Shown: positions 7,308-56,016, counted from the stretch's first letter. The stretch: DNA of 64,000 nt from Sphingobacteriales bacterium (GCA_004294495.1 REAS01000042.1:12670-76669), one strand, 5' to 3'. The notes: generated by a model from the sequence alone, not told the origin. Made by a program: numbers and translations.

Positions 7308-7585
7308 ACTAATTAAACTATATTGATGTTTCAATTTTAATAATACTTAAAATACTATATACCTGAGTTCGATTGTTTATTCTAATATAATTTACTGTTT
7401 ATTAAGGTTATAAGCTATCTCTTGCGTTAACGATTGCAGCGGCATCCTTTTTTTACGCCGAAACTCCCCCTTCGGGGGTCGGGGGGATAAATAAATAAAA
7501 AAAGATATAGCGTAAAGCGTGTTAAAACGCCCTAATCATTACGAAAACAATATTTATAAGTAACATTTTTTGTAATTTATATTTA

Positions 7586-9580: not shown

Positions 9581-9873
9581 TTTTTTTTGAAGCAACAAAA
9601 CGGGGGTAAGCGTTTAACTTAATTTGTACCAGCTTTCCGCTAAACTCCGCTTAGCCCCAAAAAGGCCAATGCGGGGTACCGCTGCAATCTGGGCTAATAT
9701 TAAAGGTTGGTGGGTTTGGCGGAGGTTTGGTAACTGGAATTAAAATAAAATATCAAGGTTACAGAATTTATTGCAATCTTGGCTTGTAACAAAGCCATCA
9801 TCAAACTTTAAATAAATTGAATTAAAGTAGTATATAATTCCTTAAATTTATAAATTATTAAAACTTCACAGCT

Positions 9874-21149: not shown

Positions 21150-21287
21150 AAATTTCTATTTTTTATATTAAAAAACTGTGGACGATAAAAAAAATACGGT
21201 TTAAAAAAGCAGAAAACAATGTTGCGGCTTTAGCATTTTTTTTAACGTGGTTGCAATCAACTCAAATCAATCCACTTTTATTAGTTG

Positions 21288-45410: not shown

Positions 45411-45656
45411 AAAGTTTTCAACAGTATTGTTGGTAAGGTAGATGGGCTTGGGAGATTTTGTGTAATGATTTTAAATGAGATGTTATTACCTATGCTTTCG
45501 CTTGGAGCGAAGAGATAGGTTTGGAATTTAATTTACTATGTGGGTGGTGGTAAATCAAACACGGGTAGTTTATAGATTACTCAACCGTTTTAGCCACAAG
45601 CTAAAGCCTATTTTTATAAACTGGAATTTTTAAGAGCTTATGGAGTGAAGCAAATA

Positions 45657-45890
45657 ACCTCAACGTTTGGGTTAAACACCCCAGTGTTTGGGTTATTAAC
45701 CCCAGTGTTTGGGTTAAAAACCTAATTGGTTTAGGTTATTAACCCAAAGTTTTAGGTTAAAGACCGAAACGTTTAGGTTATAGACCGAAACGTTTGGGTT
45801 TTAGACCCAATGCGATTAGGTTAAAGACCGAAGCGGTGGGGTTATGGACCGAAACGGAAGGGTTAAAGACCGTAATGGTGGGGTTACAGG
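45657..45890. repeat. array of 11 head-to-tail 21-bp (twice 22-bp) degenerate direct repeats (iteron-like)
   Basis: The consensus is about CCGAAACGTTTGGGTTAAAGA. The (G/A)GGTT(A/T) cores start at 45669, 45690, 45711, 45733, 45754, 45775, 45796, 45818, 45839, 45860 and 45881. Two more degenerate units lie at about 46118-46155. Confidence 0.9.
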
Positions 45891-45895
45891 TAATA

Positions 45896-46118
45896 CCGAT
45901 GCCTTCGCTTGGAGCGAAGGCATCGGTTTGGAAGGTATAGGTAAATTTCGGAGCTGCAATTTTATTTTACATAAACCACCGATGCCTTCGCTTAGAGCGA
46001 AGGCATCGGGTTCGAAGGCATCGGTAAATTTTGTGTCTACAATTTATATTCTACACACACGCCGATGCCTTCGCTTGGAGCGAAGGCATCGGTATGGAAG
46101 GCATCGGTTTGAAAAAAG
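45896..46118. repeat. about 2.7 tandem copies of an 83-bp unit, each starting with a 31-nt palindrome
   Basis: CCGATGCCTTCGCTTGGAGCGAAGGCATCGG occurs at 45896, 45979 (1 mismatch, in the loop) and 46062. Each copy has a 13-bp perfect stem and a 5-nt loop. The inter-palindrome segments are also homologous (GGTAAATTT..G.GCT.CAATTT.ATT.TACA). A diverged copy lies at 45489-45519. Confidence 0.9.
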
Positions 46119-46377
46119 ACCGTAACGCCGGGGTTAAAGATCTAATGGTTTACGTAAGGAGCCTATATAACCCAATGGTTTTTTGAAAGAAATTGATACA
46201 TTTGAACATAAGAATAACGGCAATATTTATGGTACAAAGCCACGTATAAATAGTTGGATTTGTACCATTTTGTGACTGGTATAAATAAGTTAGGTGTAAC
46301 CCTACGACGAGACAATAGCATTGAACAGACAACCCAAAAATCAACAGTTTTTTTAATTAATACGTGACATTTTCAGA

Positions 46378-46385
46378 TATATTTG
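46378..46385 (+). promoter_or_regulatory. Bacteroidota-type -7 promoter element (TATATTTG) for the ParB-like operon
   Basis: TATATTTG matches TAnnTTTG and lies 26 nt upstream of the ATG at 46411. Confidence 0.35.
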
Positions 46386-46410
46386 CAATGAAAATTATTA
46401 TAAAAATCAA

Positions 46411-47508
46411 ATGAAAGCAGACGCAAAATTTATTGAGGTTGACATTCAAAATTTGAAGTTAGACCATATTAATCCAAGACTGCCTGAAAGATTAAAAGGA
46501 GCAGAGGATAAAGACGTTTTAAATTGGATGCTTTCGGATGCAACACTAATTGATTTAATGGCCTCAATTTCTGAAAATGGATTCTTTTCAGGAGAGCCAA
46601 TAATTGTTATTCCTGACAACCAAACCTATATTGTTATTGAAGGAAACCGGAGATTAGCTGCAATTAAATTACTTGCCAATCCAGGATTAGCAGCAATTAG
46701 CCCTAAAGCGGTTGAAAGTTTGTCAAATGAGGCAAAAGCTAAAAACAATATTCCCGAAAAACTTTGGGTTTACATTGTAAAAGAAAGAAGTGAGGTAGAA
46801 AATTATTTAGCATTTAGACATGTTACAGGCGTAAAGCAGTGGCCTGTAATTTCAAAAGCAAGGTATTTAAATCATTTATATCAACAGAAACCAATTAAAA
46901 CCATTTCGGTTTACAAAGACTTAGCAAAAGAGATTGGAAGCAAAGCCCCATATGTCAGAAGACTACTTACAGGATATAAGGCTTTTGAAATTATCCAAAG
47001 TAGAAAGTATTACAATATAACTGACCTTGATGAAGAAAATTTTGACCTTTCATTAATTACCGATGCTATAACAATGCATTCAGCAATTGCTGAATTTATG
47101 GGAATTGATATGGAGTCTGAAACCCCTTTTGAAAATGTTAGCCTAGAAAAATTAAAAGAAGTAACAGAATGGCTTTATCAAAAACTTTCAAATGGAAAGA
47201 CAAGAATTGGTGACAATAGGAATTTAAGAGTTTTAAATAAAGTAATCCAAAATATTGAGGCGAGAGAATCATTTATTAGTGGAGAGAAAAATTTAAAGGA
47301 AGCGGCAGAACTAACGGATTTAGCTGATGAAAATATCAGATTGTATCTTACAAAAGCTCTGCAAAATTTAGTTGAAGCCCAAAAAATAGTTCACCGAAGT
47401 TCTAATCCAGACAAGAATGATAAAAAGGTTGCCGATGAAATTATAGATTCTGCTGAACTTATTAGTCGAACAATTACAAAAAAAATTAGAGAAAAAGAAA
47501 CACTATAA
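46411..47508 (+). CDS. ParB/Srx-fold N-terminal domain protein (non-partition context)
   Basis: 365 aa. The N-terminus (IEVDIQNLKLDHINPRL...GEPIIVIPDNQTYIVIEGNRRLAAIKLL) carries the ParB-N box pattern (..NPR.. and G.RR..A). The rest was not recognised. Confidence 0.7.
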   Translation: MKADAKFIEVDIQNLKLDHINPRLPERLKGAEDKDVLNWMLSDATLIDLMASISENGFFSGEPIIVIPDNQTYIVIEGNRRLAAIKLLANPGLAAISPKAVESLSNEAKAKNNIPEKLWVYIVKERSEVENYLAFRHVTGVKQWPVISKARYLNHLYQQKPIKTISVYKDLAKEIGSKAPYVRRLLTGYKAFEIIQSRKYYNITDLDEENFDLSLITDAITMHSAIAEFMGIDMESETPFENVSLEKLKEVTEWLYQKLSNGKTRIGDNRNLRVLNKVIQNIEARESFISGEKNLKEAAELTDLADENIRLYLTKALQNLVEAQKIVHRSSNPDKNDKKVADEIIDSAELISRTITKKIREKETL

Positions 47509-47513
47509 CGGCT

Positions 47514-48584
47514 ATGGCATACTTAAAATATCTTGACTTTAGTTTGCCCAAGCTAAATTCCGAACCTAATCATTGGGCAGACCATATTGAATTCTTCTGT
47601 TTTATCTCTCAAGAAGGCAAAATTAGTGAGGAGCAAATAACAGATAGGTTATTAGATGAGAATTCTAATAACCCGTTGGCAGCAGTTGAGGATGTTGCAG
47701 AAGCAGATGAAATTAATGAACTCATTGGTGCATTATCTTCAACAGAATATATGATTGAAGACGAAGTTTTTGACGAAACTAAGGATAATTCAGCCTTTAG
47801 AGATAAAATTTCATCAAAAATAAATTCGTATTTTAACTTACTTAAAGCAAGGCAATTAAATTTTAGCGACGATTATCCCTTTCTTGTTTCAAATAATGAC
47901 ATTACAATAAAGGAAAATCTAACGACAAGTCAAACACTTTATACTATTTTGCTTTGTTCGTCCCTTTTGGGACTTGCTACCAAAAGTGGCTGCAACAAAC
48001 TTGGACATCATTTTGAAGAATTGTGTGCCCCAGCATTCAAAAAGCTAACTCCAATTGACACGCAAAATATATTTTTTGGTTCAGGTTCAGGAGAAAATCT
48101 ATTACCATCAATAACTGGCAAGTTTTACGACAAAGTGATTGAATTGTGCAATTTGCTTCATGTAACTCCACGCACAAATTTCACAGAAGAAAATGCAGGC
48201 ATTCATAATGTTGGTGATGGCGGTTTGGATTGGGTTGGAGTTTTCAATTTTCCAGACAATCAATTTTCTCAACCAACTTTTTTTGGGCAATGTGCATGTG
48301 GAACTGACTGGATTAGTAAAGAATTTGACGCTCATAGTTCAAAATGGAATAAATACATACAGTTTGAAAATGGCTATTTGACTTACCATTTTGTGCCTCG
48401 ACATTTACGTGACGAATCACTAAATTGGTATAATCCATTAGACATATATGACGTTGTCCTAATTGACAGATATAGACTAATAAGCTTATTAAAGTCTGAA
48501 GCAAATCTTCCGAATTTAATTACAACAACTTATGATTCTTTTCTTTTAGAAGTCAGCCAAAACAAAATTGATTCATTTATGTAA
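47514..48584 (+). CDS. hypothetical protein with possible degenerate Mrr/PD-(D/E)xK-like core
   Basis: 356 aa, starting 6 nt after the ParB-like stop. GDGGLDWVGVFNF-12 aa-FGQCACG resembles the Mrr_cat pattern (DGGID ... QxK), but Ala stands where the Lys is expected. The CDS call is solid. The function is speculative. Confidence 0.6.
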   Translation: MAYLKYLDFSLPKLNSEPNHWADHIEFFCFISQEGKISEEQITDRLLDENSNNPLAAVEDVAEADEINELIGALSSTEYMIEDEVFDETKDNSAFRDKISSKINSYFNLLKARQLNFSDDYPFLVSNNDITIKENLTTSQTLYTILLCSSLLGLATKSGCNKLGHHFEELCAPAFKKLTPIDTQNIFFGSGSGENLLPSITGKFYDKVIELCNLLHVTPRTNFTEENAGIHNVGDGGLDWVGVFNFPDNQFSQPTFFGQCACGTDWISKEFDAHSSKWNKYIQFENGYLTYHFVPRHLRDESLNWYNPLDIYDVVLIDRYRLISLLKSEANLPNLITTTYDSFLLEVSQNKIDSFM

Positions 48585-48793
48585 TTGGAACAGGAGCGCA
48601 CATTGCCTTAGTGCGTGTATCCTCACGCTCCAATAAAAAGAATTATATAATGATTTAGATAAAGCACTAAAACGTTGATTATCAATATTCTCAATGAATC
48701 CATATTTTTTAATTGACAAAGCGTATAACTCCAGTGGAGTTATGTTGTCAAAGAAAAAATCTATTTTTTCTTTCATTTCTTTAGTAAATTTCA
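48573..48793 (-). CDS. small hypothetical ORF (doubtful)
   Basis: ORF 48573..48854, trimmed to the ATG at 48793 because the upstream part lies in repeat copy A. The 3' end runs through a repeated junction motif, so this may not be a real gene. Confidence 0.25.
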
Positions 48794-48803
48794 TCTTTAA
48801 TCT

Positions 48804-48969
48804 CCCTGCTCTTCTACTTTTGTTAAGTCGAAGCCCAAATCGTAGGGTTTGCAACCAGTAAAAAAAAATGCCTAATAAACTTTACGTGTTGTTAATTATT
48901 TAGCTATGTTTAATATCGGATTGCAAATCCTACAACATAAGCTTCCAGATTACAAATCTGGAAAAGCGG
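48804..48969 (+). repeat. 165-bp imperfect-palindromic element, copy A
   Basis: CCCTGCTCTTCTACTTTTGTTAAGTCGAAGCCCAAATCGTAGGGTTTGCAACC...CGGATTGCAAATCCTACAACATAAGCTTCCAGATTACAAATCTGGAAAAGCGG. One of four near-identical copies in the same orientation. Confidence 0.9.
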
Positions 48970-49172
48970 CGCTGACGCTTAAACGTGAAGTTTGTACTTC
49001 TATCCAACTTTGTACGGGTTTACAGCAAAGTGCTTTCTTATCGGGCACATCTTAAACCTGTAAACGTTTTGAGTCAGCTTAAAAACCGACCCCGACAGAC
49101 AAAGCAAAAAATTTTGTTTCTAAATTTAGAAACTTTATTTATCTTTATGGCGTTTGACAATTAATTCTACAA

Positions 49173-49514
49173 ATGAAATATTTTGAGATACGGTTTATGG
49201 ACGAAGCAAACGAGTTTATAGCAGAACTTGACCCAAAGACTATCAAAAAAATATTTTACAACATTGACCTTGCTGAACAGACGAATGATCCGAAATTGTT
49301 CAAGAAATTACAAAATGACATTTGGGAACTTCGGACAAAGTATGGTGGCCTTCAAATCAGATTGCTTGCGTTTTGGGACAAGTTAAACAACAAGGAAACA
49401 TAGGTAATTGCGACACACGGTTTCATAAAAAAGGTTGACAAAGTGCCAGCAAACGAAATTCAACGAGCAGAAAAACTTAGAGATAAATATTTTAAAAATA
49501 AACCTAAAAAGTAA
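49173..49514 (+). pseudogene. RelE/HigB-type (phage Gp49-like) toxin interrupted by an in-frame TAG
   Basis: The frame reads ..LRTKYGGLQIRLLAFWDKLNNKET*VIATHGFIKKVDKVPANEIQRAEKLRDKYFKNKPKK*. The stop at 49401-49403 splits an otherwise continuous Gp49/HigB-like sequence, whose family pattern is ..ETLVIATHGFIKK..K.P..EI.KAE. Confidence 0.7.
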
Positions 49515-49518
49515 AAAT

Positions 49519-49845
49519 ATGGCTACCAAAGAAATCAAAACCTATTCATTGACCGAAATGAAAGATAAGTATATTGGTAAAGTGGGGACAGAAGACCGTG
49601 ACGAATATGAGTATGAACTTCGTATGGACGTGTTGGGTAAAATGATTAAATCTGCAAGACAAGAACGACACTTGACACAAGAAGAACTGGGCAAACTTAT
49701 TGGAGTGCAGAAAGCTCAAATTTCTAAACTTGAAAGTAGTGCTAATAGTGCGACAATTGACACCGTTTTGAAAGTTTTCAGAGCATTAAAAGCAGAAATA
49801 AACTTTAACGTAAAACTCGAAGACAACTTTGTTAGACTTGCGTAA
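49519..49845 (+). CDS. XRE-family HTH antitoxin (HigA-like)
   Basis: ORF 49435..49845. The start is chosen at the ATG at 49519 (MATKEIKTYSL), 5 nt after the toxin frame ends. The HTH is RQERHLTQEELGKLIGVQKAQISKLES. Confidence 0.8.
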   Translation: MATKEIKTYSLTEMKDKYIGKVGTEDRDEYEYELRMDVLGKMIKSARQERHLTQEELGKLIGVQKAQISKLESSANSATIDTVLKVFRALKAEINFNVKLEDNFVRLA

Positions 49846-49944
49846 TAGAGAATAAAGCCGAACGAATAACAGCACATTTGCTATAGGCGGGGGTTCGTTT
49901 TCCTCAGACAGTTTAGTGGTAGACGAAAGTTTTGTGCTCGGCAT

Positions 49945-50107
49945 CCTGCCCTTCTACTTTTGTAAAGTCGAAGCCCAAATCGTAGGGTTTGCAACCCGAA
50001 AAAAAATGCATAATAAACTTTATGTGTTGTTAATTATTTAGTTAAGTTTAATCTCGGATTGCAAATCCTACAACATAAGCTTCCAGATTACAAATCTAGA
50101 AAAGCGG
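49945..50107 (+). repeat. 165-bp imperfect-palindromic element, copy B
   Basis: Same orientation as copy A and collinear over its full length, with scattered substitutions. Confidence 0.9.
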
Positions 50108-50144
50108 GATAATATTAACCATCCCCATTAACAAACAATAAAGT

Positions 50145-50555
50145 ATGAGTATAAGTTGTTCAGCAGCACCAACAAACAAAAAAGAGTATGTCACCGACAT
50201 TGGAAAAATACTGGTAAAAGATTATGGAAAGAAAAAGTATTATAAACCAGAAGAAGTAAAAAGTGCTCATAGAAAAAGTAAGTGGTATAATGGTATTGAC
50301 TTTTCATGTTGGGGTATGAGTACATTTTCTTCACACTCAGATTTTAACTATTATCACGAGCAAACAGGGGAAGCATGCGACTATGTTGAAATGAAAACAG
50401 AAATGTTAAAAGGACTGTCATTGTCAAGTGGGTCTGAAATATTTGACCTTCCCGACTTTGATATTGATGCATCCTGGCTGGACTTCGGTGAAGTCTTTGG
50501 ATACATTTTAGAAGGTATTGGAGAATTCATTGCTGGAATATTTGATGGAGTTTAA
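50145..50555 (+). CDS. hypothetical protein (single-gene cassette between repeat copies B and C)
   Basis: 136-aa ORF filling nearly all of the space between two repeat copies. No motif recognised. Confidence 0.5.
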   Translation: MSISCSAAPTNKKEYVTDIGKILVKDYGKKKYYKPEEVKSAHRKSKWYNGIDFSCWGMSTFSSHSDFNYYHEQTGEACDYVEMKTEMLKGLSLSSGSEIFDLPDFDIDASWLDFGEVFGYILEGIGEFIAGIFDGV

Positions 50556-50587
50556 CCGAAGACAAATCATAGATATAAATACTACCT

Positions 50588-50752
50588 CCCTGCTCTTCTA
50601 CTTTTGTAAAGACGAAGCCTAAATCGTAGGGTTTACAACCCGTAAAAAAAAACCTAATAAACTTTACGTGTTGTTAATTATTTAGCTATGTTTAATATCG
50701 GATTGCAAATCCTACAATATAAGCTTCCAGATTACAAATCTGTAAGAGCGGG
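50588..50752 (+). repeat. 165-bp imperfect-palindromic element, copy C
   Basis: Same orientation and collinear with copies A and B. Confidence 0.9.
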
Positions 50753-50836
50753 CAGTAAAAACCTACAATATTACTTTCAAATTTACTATCCATTTTAGAT
50801 TTTTTAACCGAAATGATTTATTGTATCTTAGTTGTT

Positions 50837-51061
50837 ATGAAACATTATTCTGAAATAATAACTATTGATTCTAAAGTTAGATTTGAAAAACCCTGCATAA
50901 GAGGAATGCGAATAAGCGTTTACGATATTTTGGGTTGGCTGGCCTCCGGAATGCTGATTGCCGAAATTTTAGCTGATTATTTAGAACTTACCGAAGAAGA
51001 TATTAAAGCGGCGTTGTATTATGCTGCCGATAAAGAGCATAAAATAAGAATTGCTTCATGA
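50837..51061 (+). CDS. DUF433-type antitoxin-like protein
   Basis: ORF 50813..51061, start chosen at the ATG at 50837. The sequence ITIDSKVRFEKPCIRGMRISVYDILGWLASGMLIAEILADYLELTEEDIKAALYYA matches the DUF433 pattern. Confidence 0.7.
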   Translation: MKHYSEIITIDSKVRFEKPCIRGMRISVYDILGWLASGMLIAEILADYLELTEEDIKAALYYAADKEHKIRIAS

Positions 51062-51192
51062 GAATTTTACTTGATGAAAACATTTCTTTTAGGGTAGTGA
51101 AATTTTTAAATGCTTTTGGTTTTAATTGTGTACAAGTTAGAGAACTTAACTTAGAGGCTGTAATTGATAGCAATAAAAAAAATAAATCATAG
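51058..51192 (+). pseudogene. truncated DUF5615/Mut7-C-like partner of DUF433
   Basis: Its ATG overlaps the DUF433 stop (ATGA). It encodes MRILLDENISFRVVKFLNAFGFNCVQVRELNL.. and then terminates after 44 codons. Full-length partners are about 110-120 aa as I recall them. Confidence 0.5.
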
Positions 51193-51328
51193 CTTTACAA
51201 ATACGTTAGTTTAAAAAAGCAAAAACCATCAATCCCAATAAAATAACATACCCAACAAATGCCGCTAAACTAGAACGATATTAATGAATTAAATAAATAT
51301 ATTTGTTAATCGTGTTAAACAAAAACGT

Positions 51329-51655
51329 ATGATACAAACCACCATAGTACCCAAAAATACAACTGTACATATTAATATACCCCATAACTATGTGGGTAAA
51401 AAAGTACACGCATTGATGTATATTGATGAAGAAATAACAGAAACCGCCAACTTATTGTTAACCCAAAACCCTTCCGATTTTTTGGAAACATTAAGCACAG
51501 AAGAACCAAACACGCAGCCGCACAACAATGACAAAAAAATGCCACCAAAGGTAGTAGAAATTAGTTTGTTGGTAAAAAGTTTAACCGGCGTTGTACCCAA
51601 TGTTGTTAATACAAATGATGATTATTACCAATATTTAACCAATAAATATTTGTGA
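51329..51655 (+). CDS. putative antitoxin of the PIN toxin
   Basis: 108-aa ORF overlapping the PIN gene start by 4 nt (ATGA coupling). Assignment is positional. Confidence 0.5.
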   Translation: MIQTTIVPKNTTVHINIPHNYVGKKVHALMYIDEEITETANLLLTQNPSDFLETLSTEEPNTQPHNNDKKMPPKVVEISLLVKSLTGVVPNVVNTNDDYYQYLTNKYL

Positions 51656-52059
51656 TGGATAACATTTTTGTGGATACTAATATTGTACTAGACTTGCTTC
51701 AAAAACGTGAAGGGTTTTATGAAGACGCCCAAAAGTTGTTTACTTTGGCAGATACGAAGCAGGTAAATCTATTTATTTCGGCTTTAAGCATTGCAAACAC
51801 ACATTATATTTTATTTAAACATTTAAAAATGGAGGCTCGTAAAGTGCTTGCCAGTTTTAAAACATTGGTAACAATTTTGCCACTTAACGACCATATTTTA
51901 TCTATGTCATTTGCTGCAGACTTTACCGACTTTGAAGATGCCATTCAATATTATACAGCCAGCGAAAATAATTTGGAAATGATAATCACAAGAAATAAAA
52001 AAGATTTTAAAAATCAAATACTGCCTATATTAACCCTAAAAGAATATTTGAAGCAATAA
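51652..52059 (+). CDS. PIN-domain toxin (VapC-like)
   Basis: 135 aa. The sequences FVDTNIVLDLL, ..FEDAIQYY.. and ..IITRNKKDF supply the acidic PIN residues at the expected spacing. Confidence 0.8.
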   Translation: MMDNIFVDTNIVLDLLQKREGFYEDAQKLFTLADTKQVNLFISALSIANTHYILFKHLKMEARKVLASFKTLVTILPLNDHILSMSFAADFTDFEDAIQYYTASENNLEMIITRNKKDFKNQILPILTLKEYLKQ

Positions 52060-52289
52060 TGGCTAAAATGGATAACAAACAAAAACGTTTGTAAAAAAAG
52101 CAGAACTCAATCAACCCCAATAAAAACCAAACAATACTTTAACAAAAAAATCCATAAAAAATTTGATCCATTTACTAAATACAGAGTCGCAAATTTCTCT
52201 TTTTAAAGGATTTAAAGATTAAAGTTAAAAGATAGGGCAAGTTAAAATAAGTGTTGCGTGAGGAAACACTTCTTGGAGAGGGCATTATT

Positions 52290-52613
52290 TTATTTCACCA
52301 ACTCAACTAGTTTACTTTCAATTTCTTGTTTTAACACATCTTCAATTTTACCCATCACTATTTCTACCATTTCTTTATCTAATGTTACAATTTTGTGAAG
52401 CCTAATAACTGAAGGCAGTTTTAACCCAGCTTTTTCCCATTTTACAATTGCGAAATCAAATTTTGTATCATAAAACTGACTTGTAATTCTGGCTACAATA
52501 ATGTCGCCATCTTCAAAATCATTAAGTATAATTGCTGGCCTTTTTTTTGATTTTTGCCCATTAGTAAAAGGGAAATTAAGCAAAACAATATCACCAAATT
52601 CTAATTTACTCAT
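52290..52613 (-). CDS. PemK/MazF-like toxin
   Basis: 107 aa. The sequence GDIVLLNFPFTNGQKSKKRPAIIL...DIIVARITSQ......LPSVIRLHKIVTLDK follows the MazF/PemK SH3-like pattern. Confidence 0.7.
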   Translation of the reverse strand: MSKLEFGDIVLLNFPFTNGQKSKKRPAIILNDFEDGDIIVARITSQFYDTKFDFAIVKWEKAGLKLPSVIRLHKIVTLDKEMVEIVMGKIEDVLKQEIESKLVELVK

Positions 52614-52833
52614 TATCTATTGTATCATATACATCATCAGCATCTGCATAACCATTTAAAAAATGTGTTTTAGCTACTTGTTTGTAATTAAAATCGTCGT
52701 TGTTGTCGGTTTCATTCATCAAAACAATAACTTTTATTTTTTTTTCTAAAGTTGGGTTAAATTGAGATTGAATTTTTTTAGGAATTTGTATTTGATTGTT
52801 TTTAACAGTGGTACTAAATTCTAAAGCTTTCAT
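52606..52833 (-). CDS. putative antitoxin of the MazF-like toxin
   Basis: ORF 52606..53019, trimmed to the ATG at 52833 (MKALEFSTTVKNNQIQIPKKI, a SpoVT/AbrB-like beginning). The longer version reads through repeated non-coding sequence. Overlaps the toxin start by 8 nt. Confidence 0.5.
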   Translation of the reverse strand: MKALEFSTTVKNNQIQIPKKIQSQFNPTLEKKIKVIVLMNETDNNDDFNYKQVAKTHFLNGYADADDVYDTIDNE

Positions 52834-52984
52834 TTTCTTACGTTTTTTCAAATATAACACAATTGAATAAAATTTAATAAGGCAAAAAAATGTTTCTTTC
52901 GCTTTGGTGCGTGTTTTCACTCTCCAATAAAAAATCAAGAATACTTTAACAAACAGAAGTTCACGCCATTTACTAAAAACAGAA

Positions 52985-53148
52985 CCCTGCCCTTCTACTT
53001 TTGTAAAGTCGAAGCCCAAATCGTAGGGTTTGCAACCCGTAAAAAAATGCCTAATAAACTTTACGTGTTGCTAATTATTTAGCTATGTTTAATATCGGAT
53101 TGCAAATTCTACAACATAAGCTTTTAGATTACAAATCTGAAAGAGCGG
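52985..53148 (+). repeat. 165-bp imperfect-palindromic element, copy D
   Basis: Same orientation. The right-hand hairpin is degraded (TTAGATTACAAATCTGA instead of CCAGATTACAAATCTGG). Confidence 0.9.
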
Positions 53149-53160
53149 ATTAAATATCTC

Positions 53161-53252
53161 TTATTCCCTTTTTCTACTATTTTCGCGTTTGCAGCCATCG
53201 TAGAGTTCATATTCTAACAATCGGCAATCTAAATACCGTTATAAAACTCAAT
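53161..53252 (-). pseudogene. degenerate duplicate of the last 30 or so codons of the THUMP methyltransferase gene
   Basis: 53161-53252 aligns base for base with 54832-54923, at about 85% identity by eye. There is a 1-nt deletion, and the copy includes its own stop codon. With the frame corrected it reads ..EFYNG.LDCRLLEYELYDGCKRENSRKRE*, against ..EFYNGKLDCRLLEYELYDGSKRENSDERE* in the intact gene. Confidence 0.8.
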
Positions 53253-53340
53253 ACTCCGCCTTGCTTTAAATTCATAACAATTAATTAACGTTTTAATTGT
53301 TTCTTTGAGGGTAAAATTTTTTTAAGATCTGTTTAGTTTT

Positions 53341-53997
53341 ATGGTAAATAACCAAGTACAAATTTCTGTTTTAATGGCAGTTTATAATACCAATTTTTCT
53401 TTAGTAAAACGGGCGGTAGATTCTGTACTTAACCAAACTTACCCTCATTTCGAAATTATAATAATAGATGATGGCAGCAATAACCAATGCCTTTGGAAAC
53501 TGATAGAGTATGTACAATTGTTCGAAGATAAAATTTCGTTTTTACAGCATAAAAATATTGGTCAATCAAAATCTATTAACCGAGGCGTACAAAACAGTAA
53601 AGGAAAATATATTACCATATTAGATGCCGATGACGAGTACGAAAACAACCATCTAGAATTGTGTTTAAACCAGATGGAAAACTATGATTTAATAGCATCA
53701 ACCACCAAAACAATTGTTGAAAACGAAAACGATTTTTTTGTAAGCGATAAACACGATACCACAAAATTGATACACGTTGATGACTGTATTTTATTTGCCA
53801 CACTGTTTGGCAAAAAAGAAATTTTTGAAAAAATAAAATTTGAAGATAAATATGCTGCCGATGCTCATTTTTACGAATCGGCTACCCGTTTTTTTACTAC
53901 CGCTAAACTAGATTTGCGCACCTATATTTATTACCGAAACAACCCAAATAGCATTACAGCAAAAATGAAACAAAAAAACGATGCTTTGGTGTTATAG
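53341..53997 (+). CDS. family 2 glycosyltransferase
   Basis: 218 aa with ISVLMAVYNT, IIIIDDGS and ILDADDEY (DxD). Confidence 0.8.
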   Translation: MVNNQVQISVLMAVYNTNFSLVKRAVDSVLNQTYPHFEIIIIDDGSNNQCLWKLIEYVQLFEDKISFLQHKNIGQSKSINRGVQNSKGKYITILDADDEYENNHLELCLNQMENYDLIASTTKTIVENENDFFVSDKHDTTKLIHVDDCILFATLFGKKEIFEKIKFEDKYAADAHFYESATRFFTTAKLDLRTYIYYRNNPNSITAKMKQKNDALVL

Positions 53998-54021
53998 GTT
54001 TAGGTAAGATGAAAAACATAT

Positions 54022-54765
54022 ATGAAAACCAAGCCCAATAATGTTATTCTTGCTTGTTACTTTACAGGTGTTTATGATGTAAACCGTAACCAAATATTAG
54101 CAGATAACGATTTTTCGAAAATAGAAAGCTGGGCTGCACCAATGGCTGCACAAAAAATATTAGGCATAGTTTTTCACAATAGTTTAACTGACGAAACCTG
54201 CCAACTACACACCAATAAATATTTACAATTTATTAAAGTAGAGTTAGATAGTAATTATAGCCCAAATGTATATCGGTATTTTTTATACAACACTTATTTG
54301 CAAAACAATAAAGTAGATAACGTTTTTATTACCGATAGCACAGATGTTGTGGCTTTACAAAATCCGTTTATACAACCTCTTTTTACAAACAATAACCAAG
54401 CAATTTTTTGCGGCGACGAACCCCAAATACTAAACAACCCTTGGATGGATAGCCATAGCAAACACCTACGTAGTGTAATAAATAACTATGCCGCTTACGA
54501 AGAAAAACACAAAAACTCAACATTGTTAAACTGCGGAATTGTAGGAGGTAGTTTTACCATTATGCAGTTTTTTTTAGATAAAATTTGCCAAATTCACAGG
54601 CAATATAACTCCAATAATAAAACGGCTTATACTGGCGATATGGGTGCATTTAATTATTTATTGCGCACCCAATTTAATGATAACATTATACACGGCCAAC
54701 CCGTAAACACCATTTTTAAAGCTTATGAAAACGAGCGGTTAGACTGTTGGTTTGCACATAAGTAA
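54022..54765 (+). CDS. hypothetical protein, co-oriented with the GT2 gene
   Basis: 247-aa ORF starting 25 nt after the GT2 gene. No motif recognised. Confidence 0.5.
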   Translation: MKTKPNNVILACYFTGVYDVNRNQILADNDFSKIESWAAPMAAQKILGIVFHNSLTDETCQLHTNKYLQFIKVELDSNYSPNVYRYFLYNTYLQNNKVDNVFITDSTDVVALQNPFIQPLFTNNNQAIFCGDEPQILNNPWMDSHSKHLRSVINNYAAYEEKHKNSTLLNCGIVGGSFTIMQFFLDKICQIHRQYNSNNKTAYTGDMGAFNYLLRTQFNDNIIHGQPVNTIFKAYENERLDCWFAHK

Positions 54766-54831
54766 TGGGAGTTTTCAAATTTTAGTAGCAACTACTTTAA
54801 AAACTATTAACCCAACCCTATTAAACTCAAC

Positions 54832-56016
54832 CTACTCCCTTTCGTCACTATTTTCCCGTTTACTGCCATCGTAAAGTTCATACTCTAACAATCGGCAATC
54901 TAACTTACCATTATAAAACTCTATGCGATGACTGGCTCGTAAGCCTATTTTTTTGGCTAAATCGGGATTACCTGTAAAAATATAGCCACGGTAGCCTTTA
55001 CAATCTTGTTTTAGGTAGTCGCCAATACGTTTGTAAGTAGCTTCAAGTTTGGTGTGTACGCCTAAACGTTCGCCATATTCGGGGTTAAAAACTATAACAC
55101 CTGGCTGGCCTTCGGGTAAAACAGTTTCGGCAAAATCGGCAACCTGAAAATCAATTAAGGTATCAACACCAGCAGTTCGGGCATTTTTTTCTGAAATTGC
55201 AACAGCATCTTCCGATATATCTGAGGCTATAATTTTAAAATTGATGTTTTTAACTACTTGATCTTTAAGTATGCGGCGTTCTTTAAAAAAAACATCTTCC
55301 TCGTAACCCAAAATATGCATAAAAGCGTAGTTCATACGCAATAAACCGGGTGTACGGTTGGTAGCAATTAAAGCGGCTTCAATAGCTAAAGTACCCGAGC
55401 CGCACATGGGGTTCACAAATGTGCTTTGTTTATCCCACCCAGTGGCAAAAATTGTACCTGCTGCCAAAGCTTCTAACATTGGGGCTTTGCCGGGTATTTT
55501 GCGGTAGCTGTGTTTGGCTAATGTTTCGCCCGATGTATCTAAATAAATTTCGGCATTATCGTTTTTCCAGTACAAATGCACCACAGTTTTAGAATAATCG
55601 GATCCCGAATTTGGCCTTAAATTATGCACACTTTTTATCCTATCGGCAATAGCATCTTTAACTTTTAGGTTTGCAAAAAGCGGCGTTGTGATGGTTAAAT
55701 TATCAACATTAGAGGTTACCGAAAAGTAGCCACTAAAATCAATGAGTTTTTCCCACTCAATGCAAACTACTTCGTTATACATTTCGTTGGCGTTTGCTGC
55801 GGTAAATTCTTTAACACGGTATAAAATTTGGCTTGCGCAACGTAGGTTTAAATTTAGTTTAATACATTCGTTTACAGTAGCTTTTAATTCTATGCCGGTT
55901 GCAAAAACACGGTCGGGCTTAAAGCCCAGTGCTTCAACCTCTTGTTGTAGATAAGTTGATAGCCTTTTGTTGCAGGTAATAATAACCTTTGCGGGATTGT
56001 TGAAAACTTGATACAT
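54832..56016 (-). CDS. THUMP-domain class I SAM-dependent RNA methyltransferase (RlmL/YpsC-like)
   Basis: 394 aa with an N-terminal ferredoxin-like/THUMP part, PMCGSGTLAIEAAL (SAM motif I) and FNPEYGERLG (motif IV). Confidence 0.85.
   Translation of the reverse strand: MYQVFNNPAKVIITCNKRLSTYLQQEVEALGFKPDRVFATGIELKATVNECIKLNLNLRCASQILYRVKEFTAANANEMYNEVVCIEWEKLIDFSGYFSVTSNVDNLTITTPLFANLKVKDAIADRIKSVHNLRPNSGSDYSKTVVHLYWKNDNAEIYLDTSGETLAKHSYRKIPGKAPMLEALAAGTIFATGWDKQSTFVNPMCGSGTLAIEAALIATNRTPGLLRMNYAFMHILGYEEDVFFKERRILKDQVVKNINFKIIASDISEDAVAISEKNARTAGVDTLIDFQVADFAETVLPEGQPGVIVFNPEYGERLGVHTKLEATYKRIGDYLKQDCKGYRGYIFTGNPDLAKKIGLRASHRIEFYNGKLDCRLLEYELYDGSKRENSDERE

Follow-up and report, generated by a model that had tools for sequence, protein, structure and literature searches.

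A 165-bp stem-loop repeat with REP/REPIN-like features among the accessory genes of an uncultured Sphingobacteriales bacterium

Introduction

Repetitive extragenic palindromes (REPs) of the GTAG type are short stem-loops carrying a GTAG tag, often arranged in head-to-head pairs around a conserved spacer of 20-100 bp; they are found singly, as dimers or in clusters that may take in flanking DNA, lie mostly downstream of open reading frames (ORFs) and are known to stabilise the upstream mRNA (PMC3733652). REP-associated tyrosine transposases (RAYTs), which cleave at the GTAG-hairpin, are thought to mobilise these repeats (PMC3733652; PMC6006769), and RAYTs of subclasses 2.4 and 2.6 are encoded in Bacteroidetes (PMC6006769). 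Here we analyse a 165-bp repeat that occurs four times in a 64-kb stretch of DNA (REAS01000042.1:12670-76669, hereafter the window) from the metagenome-assembled genome (MAG) of an uncultured Sphingobacteriales bacterium. A preliminary description, made from the sequence of the window, had taken the four copies for an integron-like array of the kind known as a cluster of attC sites lacking an integron-integrase (CALIN). We propose instead that the repeat is, on balance, probably a composite extragenic palindromic element of the REP/BIME/REPIN type (BIME, bacterial interspersed mosaic element; REPIN, REP doublet forming a hairpin) belonging to uncultured Sphingobacteriales.

Other known systems share some traits with this locus. 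In a CALIN, an adjacent integrase is not required. Palindrome-associated transposable elements (PATEs) are IS200/IS605 insertion sequence (IS) ends without the transposase, which depend on Y1 HUH chemistry and insert in a strand-specific manner, and the pdif modules of Acinetobacter plasmids are gene modules bounded by XerC/D sites.

Four direct copies of a 165-bp repeat

Repeat finding recovered the copies as a single family of direct repeats that spans 4.3 kb, with every copy on the + strand, and their limits were refined by profile search as follows.

48805..48972, + strand: repeat copy 1, full length (nhmmer, 180.7 bits)
49945..50110, + strand: repeat copy 2, full length, used as the reference copy (repeat finding, profile search, folding)
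50589..50753, + strand: repeat copy 3, full length (repeat finding and profile search)
52986..53150, + strand: repeat copy 4, full length, adjoining a remnant of the 3' end of a THUMP gene (repeat finding and profile search)

The four direct copies on the + strand were thus as the preliminary description had them, even if its term near-identical was slightly generous for a pairwise identity of 90.2-94.0%. A 40-mer and a 43-mer specific to the arms each matched exactly the four copies in the 64 kb, with no match in 100 shuffles. Similarity of the flanks ends sharply in the four copies, at CCTGC on the left and past AGCGG(G) on the right; at these aligned boundaries none of them has a direct repeat of at least 3 bp in its flanks, that is, there is no target-site duplication, and the base before the left end of the element shows a weak preference for C. 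While the window copies are 90-94% alike among themselves, their identity to copies found outside the window is 70-85%. Being closest to one another, they were probably amplified locally or brought in together with the gene island in which they lie. Two partial duplicates accompany them.

50758..50786, + strand: partial right-arm duplicate directly 3' of copy 3 (repeat family D2, 76% identity)
52116..52215, + strand: duplicate of the copy-4 left flank, running ~25 nt into a degenerate left end (alignment)

The duplicated flank itself occupies 52116-52185 (alignment score 72 vs 37 +/- 7 in shuffles, maximum 63), and the whole feature could be a truncated fifth copy, placed after the PIN module described below.

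The repeat is built from short stem-loops, two of them tagged

On folding, each strand of the whole element yields a single long imperfect hairpin with internal loops (DNA z = -5.1 and -4.6; RNA z = -9.1 and -9.9). Its TTTGTAA/TTACAAA box, unpaired spacer, (G)AAGC/GCTT(C) box and 13+4 bp stem match the long hairpin drawn in the preliminary description, which had overlooked about 12 additional outer base pairs joining CCTGCCC..TTCTA with TAGAA..GCGGG; because of these, the palindrome reaches the very ends of the element. The local hairpins reported earlier within each arm are present as well. Their basic unit is a short stem-loop with a 5-7 bp stem and a 3-nt loop of the form T-G-Y or R-C-A, the tag-bearing type being GTAG-GGGTTTGCAACCC. 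Conservation and covariation were assessed on an alignment of 14 diverged copies, with the following results for the four stem-loops (coordinates of copy 2).

49956..49968, + strand: H1, outer left stem-loop ACTTT-TGT-AAAGT (93.8% of cells paired over the 14 copies)
49982..49997, + strand: GTAG tag and H2 stem-loop GGGTT-TGC-AACCC (95.7% paired; the most conserved block of the family)
50056..50071, - strand: H3 stem-loop and inverted GTAG, reading GGATT-GCA-AATCC-TAC on the + strand (97.1% paired)
50083..50099, + strand: H4, outer right stem-loop CCAGATT-ACA-AATCTRG (three pairs with compensatory changes)

The left arm (H1 and GTAG-H2) opposes an inverted, diverged right arm (H3-CTAC and H4) across a conserved AT-rich spacer of ~55 nt, H2 and H3 forming a head-to-head dimer that is also able to fold as one long hairpin. 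Together with their tags, H2 and H3 are the best conserved blocks of the alignment, and the CCTAC of the right arm is retained in 11 of the 14 copies. The conservation of H3 counts as independent evidence, since the right arm was absent from the pattern used to search for further copies. In the long hairpin, 81% of the cells are paired and its covariation score was reached by 43 of 500 shuffles, which is no excess; for the four local stem-loops the corresponding figures are 93% and 1 of 500, the signal coming chiefly from H4, where CAGATT/AATCTG alternates with CAGGATT/AATCCTG. Because covariation backs the local stem-loops and not the long fold, the latter is best seen as a by-product of inverted short palindromes.

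The arms can also be found apart. A left arm alone is present at four of the loci introduced in the next section (L001, L004, L005 and, as a partial copy, L017), and three independent loci (L002, L008 and L014) hold a tandem of a partial left arm and a full copy in which the junction lies, each time, directly past H2. As judged from these arrangements, the left arm is a separable module.

No functional strand stood out, as the antisense strand folds as well as or better than the sense strand in 8 of 11 copies and the test for strand asymmetry was not significant, with no consistent asymmetry. At gathering and permissive thresholds, Rfam gave nothing for the repeat beyond noise-level matches to miRNA hairpins. 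A terminator scan found no sense-strand terminator within the element and no T-run terminator, and sigma-70 promoter-like sites were no commoner than in shuffles, in a scan that does not cover promoters of the Bacteroidetes type.

Distribution and polarity of the family

One conserved left-arm 20-mer was scanned against genome and metagenome collections. Among the GTDB representative genomes it found five loci in three Sphingobacteriales MAGs, and in the metagenome collection eleven loci, of which one (L010) is a chance match in high-G+C DNA; plasmids, phages and viral contigs searched with the element gave no match. The element lies on at least three contigs of one MAG and on at least seven contigs of one metagenome; JAAFJW01, RDXP01 and JAYULE01 are among the carrier MAGs. 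On this sampling of sequences, the family looks low-copy and is patchy among relatives, and a literature search found no prior description of it in Sphingobacteriales or Flavobacteria.

Some of the copies stand alone: between a 175-aa gene and a methyltransferase gene (L002), near a dipeptidase gene, with the upstream side of the copy unseen (L003), as a half-copy or single element after hemL (L005), after an esterase gene (L011) and between a Bro-N gene and katG (L012). Others come in arrays, where two or three copies share one orientation and each interval holds one or two genes, the cargo being Fic in L008, an acyltransferase and Hva1 in L014, KilA-N in L015, and YhcG/DUF1016 followed by a lipoprotein in L018; L017 and L009/L013 hold such arrays too. 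Since arrays recur at other loci, the cassette-like appearance of the window belongs to the family as a whole and is no accident of this stretch. Adjacent pairs were co-oriented in 11 out of 11 cases across loci (probability 2^-11 if orientations are independent), and where the upstream gene is known (18 copies), 17 copies follow the stop codon of a co-oriented gene (p = 1.4e-4), at distances of 8-322 nt that are mostly below 110 nt. Downstream genes begin 34-87 nt past a copy.

A subfamily with a longer spacer (~110 nt) and an extra conserved left flank was seen at L009 (1354-1571 and 3531-3680) and L013 (2221-2350). The contig concerned, Ga0335395_10000021 (165 kb), carries three copies of this subfamily in the same orientation, and the minus-strand ORFs beside them share their first ~20 residues (MSFNYVVNVIFLGREDTHHGL), which are encoded by the repeated flank.

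Genes between the copies and their relation to the repeat

The island in which the four repeats sit is low in G+C and is bounded by mraZ, which ends the dcw cluster, on one side and by a THUMP/RlmL-like methyltransferase gene on the other. At a related locus (L006), whose dcw cluster is 87% identical, the sequence joins window position 45563 to ~53260, so that the segment in between is a variable island; it contains short hairpin arrays, a PD-Lambda-5_A-like gene and its partner, toxin-antitoxin (TA) modules and the four repeats. Pfam searches bore out the gene content that the preliminary description had given for the intervals between copies.

45564..53259, no strand: segment missing from L006, a variable defence/TA island of lower G+C that holds all four copies (comparison with L006)
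49173..49845, + strand: interval 1, HigB (Gp49/DUF891) and HigA (HTH_3) (Pfam)
50145..50555, + strand: interval 2, 136-aa orphan of a conserved Bacteroidota family (homologue search)
50813..52833, both strands: interval 3, DUF433 and truncated DUF5615 (+), a 108-aa ORF and PIN_3 (+), PemK/MazF and a 75-aa antitoxin (-)

Interval 3 thus comprises three TA modules with no intact repeat separating them. In interval 1, the HigB-like toxin gene (49173-49515) has an in-frame TAG at 49404, after which the 36 C-terminal codons still match the family, so it is probably a pseudogene beside an intact HigA gene.

Copies 2 and 3 closely enclose the orphan ORF, whose family shows 67-86% conservation over many orders of Bacteroidota. 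The homologues closest to this ORF (84-85% identical) lie in unrelated contexts and have no element. Hosts of the family include Cyclobacteriaceae, Chryseobacterium, Psychroflexus, Fibrisoma, Tenacibaculum, Aquimarina, Spirosoma and Kaistella, always in differing contexts; the family is uncharacterised, with a weak match to DUF6559, and among the homologous loci L019-L024 one (L024) holds two paralogues.

The slot upstream of mraZ is a hotspot of variable accessory genes in the clade (L006, L034-L045), occupied in relatives by alternatives such as a glycosyltransferase pair, MazG with RarA, proBA with a DUF2683/YoeB-type TA pair, or Fic and a 349-aa gene with DUF6434 and a GNAT acetyltransferase. 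In twelve related dcw loci, this slot holds accessory genes such as TA, Fic or MazG but no element. The preliminary description had suggested looking for breakpoints inside the repeats at related mraZ loci; the accessory content of these does vary, and as the element is absent from them there are no such breakpoints. We also searched for an empty site by way of the methyltransferase gene adjoining the L002 copy: orthologues were found, synteny was not conserved, and no clean empty site emerged. A further ~59 kb of related sequence was free of the element. Because unrelated genes carry the element while close homologues are without it, the element appears to move independently of particular genes.

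Origin of the repeat

At the sequence level, the repeat agrees with the published description of GTAG REPs in every feature. GTAG stands at the foot of a short imperfect palindrome and has an inverted counterpart on the right arm; the units are inverted head to head around a conserved ~55-nt spacer and can fold as one hairpin; the element is extragenic, following the stop codon of a co-oriented gene in all copies but one of the 18; singletons, dimers and tandem or partial arrangements coexist; and target-site duplications are absent, as expected for HUH-type elements. It departs from them in the second outer stem-loop of each arm and the terminal complementarity, by which 165 bp hold four hairpins, and in its very short stems (5 bp). 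A further set of observations weighs against the assignment to this class. The G of GTAG can pair with the stem here, whereas the published tag is unpaired, and both the strict polarity to the upstream gene and the gene-containing arrays in one orientation (11/11 pairs) are atypical of described REPINs. Classical REPIN populations comprise tens to hundreds of copies, while the copy number here looks low: there is no further copy in the remaining ~60 kb of the window, nor any in ~260 kb of related sequence that was retrieved by protein and independently of the element. A motif scan revealed no RAYT/Y1 motif in the window or in loci L001-L018, and a 2013 survey of GTAG-REP hosts did not list Bacteroidetes (PMC3733652). 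The conservation of the left arm is partly a matter of ascertainment, the H2 block having served as search pattern, and mobility is something that we infer, because no pair of an empty and a filled site was obtained.

If the repeat is of the REP/REPIN type, its copies would be non-autonomous elements that move infrequently as single-strand DNA, most likely through a Y1 HUH (RAYT-type) enzyme whose gene lies elsewhere in the genome and which acts in trans, and local duplication together with flanking DNA would add to the spread. Copies would be kept almost exclusively where a short gap follows the stop of a co-oriented gene; there, the sense strand is probably transcribed as a hairpin of the 3' untranslated region (3'-UTR) or of an intercistronic region. 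Such a hairpin would not be a classical terminator, and by analogy it probably acts like the REPs that stabilise upstream mRNA; the short distance to downstream genes (34-87 nt), together with the lack of a T-run terminator, suggests read-through. The cassette look could then arise because a horizontally variable defence/TA island consists of many short genes and hence many 3' gaps. Secondarily, the direct 165-bp repeats might let RecA-mediated homologous recombination delete or shuffle the intervening modules, in which case the island, though no cassette array, would to some extent act as one.

The integron/CALIN interpretation of the preliminary description captured a genuine architectural resemblance, which recurs in other genomes, and went too far in implying membership of the integron/attC class, whose core features fail. 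Like attC sites of the Vibrio cholerae repeat (VCR) type, which measure ~60-140 bp, the repeats are imperfect palindromes that fold as single strands, lie in one orientation on the 3' side of small, often promoterless accessory genes, are homogeneous within an array and accompany TA-rich cargo; at least two clustered same-orientation sites with ORFs between them, the mark of a CALIN, are found in the window as they are in L008, L014, L015 and L018. One could therefore imagine an integron-like system in which the repeats are attC-analogous sites and an unrecognised recombinase encoded elsewhere moves gene-plus-repeat cassettes. The recurrence of same-orientation arrays with one or two accessory genes per interval (window, L008, L009/L013, L014, L015, L017 and L018), the co-orientation of all 11 adjacent pairs, the position of 17 of 18 copies after co-oriented ORFs, the strong folding of single strands, the close start of downstream genes (34-87 nt past a copy) and a cargo of TA, Fic, KilA-N, Bro-N, YhcG and RhuM-like genes would all fit, and the homogeneity of copies within an array recalls the VCRs. 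We nevertheless hold such a system to be decidedly improbable. A regex scan of both strands found no RYYYAAC/GTTRRRY (R''...R') pair in any window copy +/-30 nt, which the preliminary description had already conceded, isolated GTTAAGT motifs being confined to copies 1 and 2, in the left arm or central spacer, and the complementarity of the repeat extends past the putative "R box". Equally in line with that description, which saw no IntI-like recombinase, there is no integrase, other recombinase or transposase among the window ORFs nameable by Pfam (the island and most other large ORFs), and its proposal to look for a recombinase beside further copies yielded none in the loci inspected. Furthermore, the sites are not confined to arrays, with singletons beside housekeeping genes (L002, L003, L005 and L011); half-elements and tandem partial arms occur; covariation is seen in the local hairpins and not in the long fold; strand asymmetry is not consistent; one interval holds three TA modules; the repeat is missing beside the nearest homologues of the orphan cassette gene and from relatives with TA or Fic genes in the mraZ-upstream slot; and complete integrons are almost unknown in Bacteroidetes (PMC9024848). 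A bolder version, in which the repeats would be the sites of an integron-analogous platform native to Bacteroidota, with REPIN chemistry recruited for cassette exchange and either a Y1 HUH/RAYT-like single-strand-DNA enzyme or an unrecognised recombinase capturing and shuffling, by way of the folded GTAG-hairpin element, gene-plus-repeat units with TA, Fic, KilA-N, YhcG and defence genes as cargo, strikes us as a long shot.

The preliminary description had itself named local amplification of a miniature inverted-repeat transposable element (MITE) as the alternative, which is closer to our reading than the integron was, although the GTAG hairpins and missing target-site duplications give the repeat a REP/REPIN-like anatomy and not that of a classical MITE. 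An ordinary MITE would be the deletion derivative of an IS with a DDE transposase, mobilised in trans via its terminal inverted repeats (TIRs) and locally amplified, and the repeat is indeed palindromic to its very ends (CCTGCYCTTCT...AGAARAGCGGG), small, non-coding, not in Rfam, patchy among relatives and absent from orthologous loci. We rate this origin as very unlikely in view of the lack of target-site duplications at four aligned boundaries despite 90-94% identity, the separable arms joined at a hairpin, a feature foreign to DDE MITEs, the peak of conservation at the internal GTAG-hairpins and not at the termini, a strict gene-relative polarity unexpected for a symmetric TIR element, and the absence of a related IS from the sequence examined. 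That same polarity, with 17/18 copies sense-oriented directly after a stop codon, is what one would expect if the repeat were mainly a cis-acting RNA of 3'-UTRs or intercistronic regions, selected for mRNA stabilisation, processing or insulation and spread mainly by recombination with its host genes rather than by transposition. RNA folding z-scores of -9 to -10, compensatory changes in the local hairpins, the combination of close downstream genes with no T-run terminator, which suggests read-through, and the known action of REPs in this manner (PMC3733652) speak for it. As an account of origin we find it unlikely, since the antisense strand folds at least equally in 8/11 copies, half-copies and tandem partials look like DNA-level events, no Rfam family corresponds to it, and the presence of the element beside unrelated genes but not beside close homologues of its neighbours points to movement independent of genes; as a function, it is compatible with a REP/REPIN-type element and no true alternative to it.

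PATEs resemble the repeat in being short non-autonomous elements with two hairpin-bearing ends, no TIR requirement and no target-site duplication. In a PATE, however, neither end is an inverted copy of the other, and insertion takes place 3' of a fixed tetra- or pentanucleotide, whereas the repeat shows no evident fixed target apart from the weak C preference before its left end. Likewise, pdif modules share the delimitation of small accessory/TA modules by short repeated sites with no dedicated recombinase nearby, but pdif sites are 28 bp long, have alternating orientations and are recognised by XerC/D in duplex form, unlike a hairpin-built 165-bp repeat in direct orientation. CRISPR, type III TA RNA, retron and pdif/Xer modules were rejected on anatomy.

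If the classification as a REP/REPIN-type element is true, it would add a GTAG-tagged family to Sphingobacteriales, within Bacteroidota, a phylum unreported in the 2013 survey. The family would be unusual in its strict sense polarity directly after stop codons and in that its arrays of co-oriented copies tend to enclose one defence, TA or phage-type gene at a time. It would raise the questions of whether REP-type elements, or their 165-bp homology, can cause defence islands to gain and lose accessory genes in a modular fashion and whether such elements serve as intercistronic RNA stabilisers in Bacteroidota. In any case, an architecture of repeat, small gene and repeat is by itself no evidence for an integron.

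Other features of the island and the window

The left part of the island is likely to be a putative two-gene anti-phage defence system.

46411..48584, + strand: PD-Lambda-5_A-like protein and 356-aa partner (PADLOC)

The first of these proteins (365 aa) matches PD-Lambda-5 component A (PADLOC, E = 6e-28) and has a weakly ParB-like N-terminus, while its 356-aa partner matches no family. At the other end of the island, copy 4 is followed directly by a duplicate of the THUMP/RlmL-like gene's 3' end, 81% identical to it (53149-53265 vs 54820-54937), and between this duplicate and the intact gene end lie a GT2 gene and a 247-aa gene (53341-54765); the same glycosyltransferase pair adjoins mraZ in L006. 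From this arrangement, the 3' end of the THUMP gene seems to have undergone an insertion or rearrangement.

Upstream of mraZ there is a second repeat system (45665-46108, and also ~45490-45520), which recurs at L006 (1-30 and 1670-1705) and L007 (1-107). It consists of a 21-nt tandem array of ~10 mini-hairpins (GGGTTAnnnAACCC-like) at 45665-45886 and, at 45895-46108, an 83-nt tandem array containing a perfect 31-nt palindrome, CCGATGCCTTCGCT-TGG-AGCGAAGGCATCGG, which flanks the glycosyltransferase pair in L006 as well. From its composition, this system is probably another REP-like family of the lineage.

Elsewhere in the window, three structured RNAs scored above their Rfam gathering thresholds: a SAM-II (long-loop) riboswitch at 21220-21281 (-), upstream of a SAM (S-adenosylmethionine) synthetase gene, and two copies of the Flavo-1 RNA, at 7419-7528 (+) and 9622-9699 (-).

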